Shown here piece by piece: positions 25,945 through 26,097 of a stretch of 64,000 nt of DNA. The stretch lies in the IMG/VR virus record IMGVR_UViG_3300025154_001556; one strand, written 5' to 3'. Below the pieces are notes generated by a model. It made no database searches, had not been told where the DNA came from, and saw only the letters and a program-made list of their open reading frames with translations. The DNA comes from a virus. Its lineage: Duplodnaviria > Caudoviricetes. Within the stretch, counting starts at the first letter, position 1. Every line of letters begins with the position of its first letter. The position numbers and the translations under genes were made by a program.

Positions 25945-26097
25945 TTATTGCATAAATGGTGCAGTATAGAGATACTTCATACCATAACCAGTAGGCCGCG
26001 GGTTCAAACCCCGCCTAACCACATAGTGGTTAGTAGATCAGACTGGTAGATCGACTGGCACAAAAAAGACTCTTTACGCCTTTCCTTTATGCAATAA
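25945..26097 (+). ncRNA. yrlA: YrlA-type Y RNA with circularly permuted tRNA-like domain
   Basis: Outer stem TTATTGCATAAA(T)GG/CCTTTATGCAATAA encloses T-arm (GCGGG-TTCAAAC-CCCGC), loop-closed 7-bp acceptor stem (CTAACCA/TGGTTAG), D-arm (GATC-AGACTGGTA-GATC) and anticodon stem CCAGT/ACTGG; lies upstream of a TROVE gene. Confidence 0.8.

Follow-up and report, generated by a model that had tools for sequence, protein, structure and literature searches.

The window, i.e., the whole stretch of 64,000 nucleotides analyzed here, comes from a 77-kb IMG/VR virus record which CheckV estimates to be 29% complete, and the DNA of this phage is present in groundwater and soil metagenome runs. On the + strand, genes for a RuvB-like ATPase, a Sigma-70 family factor and a CCA-adding enzyme are followed by approximately 1 kb without ORFs, by an ORF of 87 amino acids and by rsr, which encodes a Ro60 protein (Table 1). 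An ATP-grasp gene comes after rsr on the same strand and, beyond it, an operon comprising nicotinamidase, radical SAM, NAPRTase, NMNAT and NAD synthase genes. Further genes also fit a jumbo phage, among them those for a protein resembling RNA polymerase beta, for ligases of the phiEco32 type and for an intein. Rsr is intact, with an invariant DxSGS in its vWA domain, and the solved structure nearest to it is Ro60 of the Thermus phage phiLo (9L5Y/9KOP, E 1.4e-17); it is presumed to be the binding partner of the RNA described below. The 87-aa ORF belongs to no Pfam family and weakly matches PHROG 2380/12255, which are families of unknown function. The synteny of the CCA-enzyme gene is kept in the related contigs L003, L004/5, L095 and L097.

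Other features of the window can be mentioned here. Approximately 8 kb downstream of rsr, the match of an ORF of 214 amino acids (36167-36811, + strand) to a PHROG RNA ligase family is confined to the C-terminal part of the latter (132-341 of 342); the ORF may represent an RNA ligase gene that has been split or truncated. An intein within a phage gene is suggested by the ORF at 58888-60462 on the - strand, as it carries Hint and LAGLIDADG homing-endonuclease domains. Directly downstream of rsr lies a non-coding block (27990-28488) with several hairpins, e.g., a palindromic stem at 28118-28170; the covariance model R1, introduced below, found no Y RNA on either strand of this block, but palindromic hairpins only, at ≤15.6 bits.

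Table 1. Features of the locus from the CCA-adding enzyme gene to rsr, with positions in the window and the basis of each assignment.
Feature	Position	Strand	Basis
CCA-adding enzyme with HD domain	23881..25284	+	Pfam PolyA_pol, PolyA_pol_RNAbd, tRNA_NucTran2_2, HD
Promoter-like site, then conserved AGGCTAATG	25363-25392	+	
T-loop-like hairpin	25701-25723	+	
Second hairpin	25731-25761	+	
Cloverleaf-like element	25764-25832	+	7-bp acceptor, 3-bp D arm, 4-bp anticodon-like arm, 5-bp T arm
Long hairpin, 17-bp outer stem	25841-25931	+	7 pairs compensatory
YrlA-type Y RNA, whole	25945..26097	+	Rfam YrlA full-length match, R1 score, covariation
Outer (basal) helix, 12 bp	25945-25956 with 26086-26097	+	sequence
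5′ stem strand, whole	25945..25971	+	family consensus U 0.99, GG, U, G 0.99, N, A 0.89, G
Bulged U	25957	+	5′ stem strand
GG step of 5′ stem strand	25958-25959	+	
GGUGCAG, putative counterpart of the published Ro-binding motif	25958-25964	+	position equivalence; bacterial consensus GGUGAAG
Internal loop UGCA, 5′ side	25960-25963	+	
Second helix strand GUAUAGAG, 5′ side	25964-25971	+	
Single-stranded AUACUUC (family consensus UUACUUC)	25972..25978	+	conservation
Permuted tRNA-like domain	25988..26058	+	sequence, Rfam model, covariation, tertiary residues
Anticodon-stem strands CCAGT / ACTGG, paired	25988-25992 / 26054-26058	+	
Variable loop AGGCC	25993-25997	+	
T-arm GCGGG / TTCAAAC / CCCGC (RNA loop UUCAAAC)	25998-26014	+	
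Acceptor-like hairpin CTAACCA / CATAG / TGGTTAG	26015-26033	+	
Linker TA (UA)	26034-26035	+	
D-arm GATC / AGACTGGTA / GATC (as RNA GAUC / AGACUGGUA / GAUC)	26036-26052	+	
3′ stem strand, whole	26070..26097	+	helices 1 and 2 covary
Second helix strand CUCUUUAC, 3′ side	26070-26077	+	
Loop GCCUUU, 3′ side	26078-26083	+	
CC, 3′ stem strand	26084-26085	+	
U-run directly 3′ of YrlA	26098-26105	+	
Second Y RNA (YrlB-like): stem scaffold and motifs, without tRNA-like domain	26111..26194	+	R1 51.7 bits, E 7.9e-12
Third Y RNA, stem only	26204..26288	+	R1 32.0 bits, E 3.2e-7, filters off
87-aa ORF between Y RNA array and rsr	26320-26583	+	in all syntenic relatives, 50-69% identity
rsr, Ro60 / TROVE protein, vWA domain with MIDAS motif	26604..27989	+	Pfam TROVE E 1.1e-15; PHROG 850 'RNA-binding protein' E 1.6e-40

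The original prediction had proposed for this locus a YrlA-type permuted tRNA mimic on a protein-binding stem, encoded by a phage close to rsr, and the model match, synteny, covariation and tertiary positions presented below bear it out. Each of the elements it listed (CCAGT, AGGCC, the T-arm, the acceptor, TA, the D-arm and ACTGG) can be read from the sequence at the position foreseen, and the distance to rsr, estimated at about 500 bp, is 506 nt between the end of the Y RNA (26097) and the rsr start (26604), both on the + strand. The order within the tRNA-like domain is: 3′ strand of the anticodon stem, variable loop, T-arm, acceptor-like hairpin, UA, D-arm, G26 and 5′ strand of the anticodon stem. 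The acceptor-like hairpin can be read as 7 bp with a 5-nt loop or, as in the RNAfold drawing, as 8 bp with a 3-nt loop. This middle part of the RNA folds as a tRNA-like L-shape in which a loop closes the acceptor and the anticodon stem leads directly into the Y stem; there is therefore neither an anticodon loop nor a free CCA end. The 5′ and 3′ ends build the long stem, with helices of 14 and 8 pairs; above its basal helix come a bulged U and a GG:CC step, and an internal loop separates these from the 8-bp helix.

The sequence folds with a z-score of -3.9, and an equally good fold was reached in 0 of 200 shuffles. Folded alone, the sequence reaches its energy minimum at -45.8 kcal/mol, with a stem that is not the same as in the comparative structure; the latter, at -39.8 kcal/mol (-44.2 when extended), lies approximately 1.6-6 kcal/mol above that minimum.

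When the 2.5 kb between 24500 and 27000 were searched with Rfam in E-value mode, the sole meaningful match was a full-length one to YrlA (RF02553; 34.9 bits, E 2.8e-5). The Infernal search proposed with the original prediction thus recovered the whole RNA, but at a score that lies under the gathering cut-off of 69 bits, and at gathering scores Rfam finds no family in the window. The known phage example CcrColossus is also below this cut-off, with 42.3 bits. A covariance model built from four sequences of the window's phage clade, R1, gives 168.5 bits to the RNA (25945-26099) on the + strand versus 27.1 on the - strand. The relatives were found through homologues of Rsr and of the CCA enzyme (L002, L003, L004/5, L095, L096 and L097), some of them in records of 157-308 kb, and in each syntenic contig the Y RNA sits between the CCA-enzyme gene and rsr. 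Among four syntenic relatives, the sequences of the acceptor, T and stem helices vary while their complementarity is kept.

Several of the features by which the family is recognized are present. A gene for Rsr/Ro60 lies on the same strand within about 4 kb, as in the definition of YrlA by Chen et al. [quoted passage not shown] Near the 5′ end, the published GNCGAAN0-1G motif is missing, and no GNCGAA can be read between 25945 and 26000.

The comparative evidence is extensive, with the proviso that the covariation counts rest on an alignment fitted to the model R1 itself. In the family alignment of R1 matches, 94.0% of the cells pair, versus 43-46.5% when the partners are slid; of 43 pairs, 42 carry double (compensatory) changes, and the observed values are reached in 0 of 500 shuffles. 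The two stem helices are paired in 92.7% and 94.2%, with double changes at all 22 of their pairs, and compensatory changes are likewise found in the T, acceptor and D helices (99.1%, 93.8% and 98.5% paired, respectively). Among 64 sequences, 62-64 retain U8, A14, G18, A21, U54, U55, C56 and A58, and the tertiary 15:48 pair of tRNA covaries, as G:C in 42 and A:U in 12 of the 64; in the window, G15 is 26041 and C48 is 25997. The same 15:48 test was used by Chen et al. (PMC4201824). Altogether, the Rfam E-value, the fold z-score and the compensatory changes in all helices confirm that the observation is beyond chance.

The YrlA-type RNA is the first of three Y RNA modules found in the window by R1 with filters off. 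In the minimum-energy folds of the second and third, the stem scaffold of YrlA is recovered, and a U-run follows the stem of each of the three. The only strong sigma-70-like promoter match on the + strand (25363-25392) lies upstream of the array, and a single precursor is therefore plausible, as in Mycobacterium smegmatis; the three Y RNAs are probably made from one such precursor transcribed towards rsr. In four sequencing runs, just two contigs of 151 nt matched, both from a run labelled RNA-Seq and probably representing DNA, and groundwater metatranscriptomes, which are small sets, gave no matching contigs.

Between the promoter-like site and YrlA, approximately 550 nt (25393-25940, + strand) are conserved in the clade, structured and non-coding, with no Rfam family and no ARAGORN match. 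The cloverleaf-like element within this region shows compensatory changes at 9 of its 19 pairs (seven sequences). It has a loop CAGCAAA with A at position 33, a degenerate T-loop and an ACAA tail rather than CCA (RCAA in 6 of 7 sequences), and it is not a decoding tRNA; in relatives, ACCA stands immediately 5′ of this element, after the second hairpin. The long hairpin that follows (25841-25931) encloses a small hairpin, then the invariant GCACCUCCACAA and UCCYUCC, and is followed by a U-run; with 3.6 bits, it is not a Y RNA according to R1. By eye, it resembles the 3′ end of 16S rRNA (the last hairpin plus the anti-Shine-Dalgarno), but the bacterial SSU rRNA model has no match on the phage record and the likeness is therefore by eye only. 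The pattern CACCUCCACAA joined to a Y stem was absent from viral contigs, and two matches of this pattern in metagenome contigs were judged on sequence to be due to chance. In other jumbo-phage contigs, approximately 1 kb of non-coding sequence also follows the CCA-enzyme gene (L179:3900-5100, L181:4350-4450, L182:4150-4230, L098:5340-5520), with T-arm-like hairpins, ACCUCC-type motifs and acceptor-like stems with ACAA or AAUA tails, and without Y RNAs or rsr nearby; these regions may constitute a CCA-enzyme-linked RNA class.

How widespread are such RNAs? The region and 20 kb of the window had no DNA match in the phage collection, and a single-protein query returned no related viral loci, so that an alignment query was needed; this alignment-based search found a relative of Rsr encoded on 346 IMG/VR stretches, and Rsr homologues are present in 91 phage records. 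In viral and metagenomic rsr loci, R1 gave 128 matches (E ≤ 1) in 87 sources, every one of them on the rsr strand; 120 are upstream of rsr (111 of these within 1 kb) and 66 include the T and D arms. Outside the clade, 71 of 83 viral or metagenomic rsr loci have a match. In cultured phages, R1 identifies five copies in tandem in CcrColossus (best 105 bits), three in the Xylella phage Usme and two in the Rhizobium phage RHph_Y65, and in bacteria 119 matches adjoin rsr in 80 genome loci, many of them on large chromosomal contigs.

The original prediction considered Ro60/Yrl pairs to be rarely reported in phages, which is at odds with these loci and with the literature. Chen et al. (2014; PMC4201824) described YrlA-like RNAs adjoining Ro60 in 254 bacteria and also in 22 phages, among which mycobacteriophages, CcrColossus and Bacillus phage G are named in a later study that characterized a phage Ro60 with two Yrl RNAs and the host PNPase, and solved the complex (Hu et al., 2025; PMC12135203). 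Likewise, a survey of jumbo phages mentions TROVE proteins 'with a tRNA-like partner' (PMC7824862). Considering these reports and the many Rsr homologues, the RNA of the window is a member of the YrlA-type Y RNA family already described in bacteria and phages.

With or without a tRNA-like domain, the Y RNAs of the clade share a single scaffold. On its 5′ side, the basal helix is variable and leads through a bulged U and GG:CC to an internal loop (5′ UGNA); next come an 8-bp helix and the single-stranded UUACUUC. Its 3′ side is made up of an A-rich linker and then G..UUGUU-CC. The positions of AUACUUC are each conserved at 0.88-0.99 in 116 distinct viral-locus and 118 bacterial R1 matches, and the UUACUUC motif is also found in the stem-only Y RNAs; motifs common to both types of molecules fit a common protein site. 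GGUGCAG differs from the published GNCGAAN0-1G at two positions, and the consensus of the bacterial relatives, GGUGAAG, at one; by its place in the sequence, we infer that it is the counterpart of the Ro-binding motif.

The anatomy of the gene, its conservation and its linkage to rsr are read directly from the genomes compared, and the mechanism proposed here is modelled on Deinococcus radiodurans, Salmonella and phage phiLo. By homology, the stem (5′ U-GG-UG-N-AG plus the adjacent UUACUUC) would be the docking site for the phage Rsr (Ro60), and the tRNA-like domain would act as an effector module bringing another factor to it. This factor would most likely be the host exoribonuclease PNPase, as assumed from other systems, or else a tRNA-binding enzyme. 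A particle of the Ro60-Y RNA-PNPase type would redirect or restrain RNA decay during infection, and the two shorter Y RNAs, with the same stem and other apical parts, could provide alternative partners for Rsr. We assign a probability of roughly 0.85 to this reading, i.e., a jumbo-phage YrlA-type Y RNA whose stem docks Rsr and whose tRNA-like domain is an effector module, likeliest for host PNPase.

Other explanations must be weighed against these data. The Y RNA could be cut by RNase P in its acceptor loop and tailed by the CCA enzyme that the phage encodes upstream, resulting in a two-piece RNA as reported for M. smegmatis YrlA (PMC4201824). The acceptor-like stem of 7-8 bp has the length that Chen et al. 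tied to RNase P cleavage, and all close relatives have the array and the CCA-enzyme gene in synteny. However, the acceptor hairpins of the family are often capped by tetraloop sequences (UUCG, GAAA) or by CUUCGG, and CCA is near the end of the 3′ strand in only 8 of 66 acceptor loops, which speaks for a closed hairpin; the window's own loop, CAUAG, has no CCA. Moreover, the related 311-kb phage L098 has a CCA enzyme and no match to the Y RNA model, nor is there an rsr within 3.2 kb downstream of its CCA-enzyme gene in the sequence compared, and the enzyme therefore seems independent of Y RNAs. We thus regard this processing as decidedly improbable. It is still harder to credit that the main role of the tRNA-like domain is that of a decoy or sponge, aimed at host enzymes that act on tRNA or at defence nucleases, and that Rsr merely stabilizes it. 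The strict retention of tRNA tertiary positions and neighbours of the repair or counter-defence type (CCA enzyme, NAD salvage operon, RNA ligase-like ORF) would suit such a role, but the anticodon loop and free 3′ end, usual targets of tRNA-directed toxins, are missing, and this type of RNA accompanies rsr in many bacterial chromosomes, so that it is no phage-specific weapon. A broader proposal, which we hold to be unlikely, would make YrlA a module of a phage ncRNA locus of approximately 900 nt, running from the CCA-enzyme gene through the cloverleaf-like element, the hairpin with a CACCUCC like that of the 16S 3′ end and the three Y RNAs to rsr. The tRNA-like elements would then be signals for processing and CCA addition, the block as a whole would counter RNA-targeting defences of the host through RNA repair or as a decoy, and GGUGNAG plus UUACUUC would be a distinct mode of Rsr recognition.

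Some algae have permuted tRNA genes whose order resembles T-acceptor-D, and a decoding tRNA processed from a circularly permuted gene might be imagined here too. The anatomy contradicts this: a 7-nt anticodon loop does not exist, since the anticodon stem leads straight into the Y stem, and the acceptor ends in a loop that lacks CCA in the window and in stable loops in relatives. Neither the window nor any of seven related loci contains a tRNA or tmRNA according to ARAGORN. We give this possibility practically no weight, and the 'CAT' before the stem, which is not conserved, does not help it. For the same reason, the suggestion that CATAA is a remnant of tRNA-Met had to be abandoned, since close relatives carry CAATAA (L002), CTATAA (L095), CTCCAA (L003) or ATTCA (L004) and the two A residues alone are a family feature before the anticodon stem. 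Equally negligible is the view that the RNA is a decayed tRNA relic, a functionless chance fold or a mere leader or terminator of the rsr operon. The sub-threshold Rfam score and the U-runs after each stem might be taken in its favor, but compensatory conservation over hundreds of loci, the bias in strand and position, and the tertiary covariation contradict it.

The locus thus offers a clean and comparatively well-supported phage Ro60-Y RNA module from a groundwater jumbo phage, and lends support to the idea that large phages encode a particle of their own for RNA surveillance or control of decay. By itself, the YrlA finding raises no new question; the conserved structured region of approximately 550 nt upstream merits separate attention. 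At the level of annotation, a large Rsr clade of phages and bacteria has Y RNAs that are missed by Rfam YrlA at its cut-off, and a covariance model dedicated to the clade would improve this situation. Furthermore, at least one phage 'tRNA' may be the domain of a Y RNA: in CcrColossus (NC_019406.1), an annotated tRNA-Gln (locus 2173-2240) lies inside an R1 match (L089:2163-2341; 63.4 bits) and has no Rfam tRNA match at E ≤ 0.01; it may represent the tRNA-like domain of a Y RNA and not a tRNA.

Among known systems, YrlA of Salmonella Typhimurium and relatives (RF02553; PMC4201824) is likewise located near rsr on the same strand, with a terminal stem, the T, acceptor-like and D order, invariant T- and D-loop residues and a covarying 15:48 pair. 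The stem in the window is longer, has two helices and carries GGUGCAG and UUACUUC in place of an exact GNCGAAN0-1G, and its acceptor-like stem has 7-8 bp instead of 6. The 7-bp acceptor-like stem is shared with M. smegmatis (PMC4201824), where two Y RNAs upstream of rsr (YrlA and YrlB), one of them without a full tRNA-like domain, come from one precursor, an arrangement comparable to the array of the window; in contrast to the RNase P cut and CCA addition of that species, no sign of them is seen in the window, and the relatives mostly have capped hairpins. Yrn1 of D. radiodurans, in its complex with Rsr and PNPase, provides the working model in which the stem binds Rsr and another module tethers PNPase, although its tRNA-like parts are arranged otherwise and are thought to be of independent origin (PMC4201824).

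Two phages complete the comparison. In Thermus phage phiLo (PMC12135203; 9L5Y, 9KOP), Ro60 is also phage-encoded, with Y-like RNAs just upstream, and its complex with host PNPase is the mechanism assumed for the phage of the window; however, protein similarity between that Ro60 and the window's Rsr is low, and Yrl1/Yrl2 are defined by a CGAA motif and a stem-bulge-stem, with 'tRNA-like' and 'YrlA' absent from the text of PMC12135203. CcrColossus has five tRNA-like copies, in contrast to the one tRNA-like and two stem-only RNAs of the window, and no CCA-enzyme gene directly upstream within the stretch compared. Nevertheless, it is a jumbo phage too, its Y RNAs have the same stem architecture and motifs, and they stand in tandem upstream of an Rsr that is 42% identical to that of the window.
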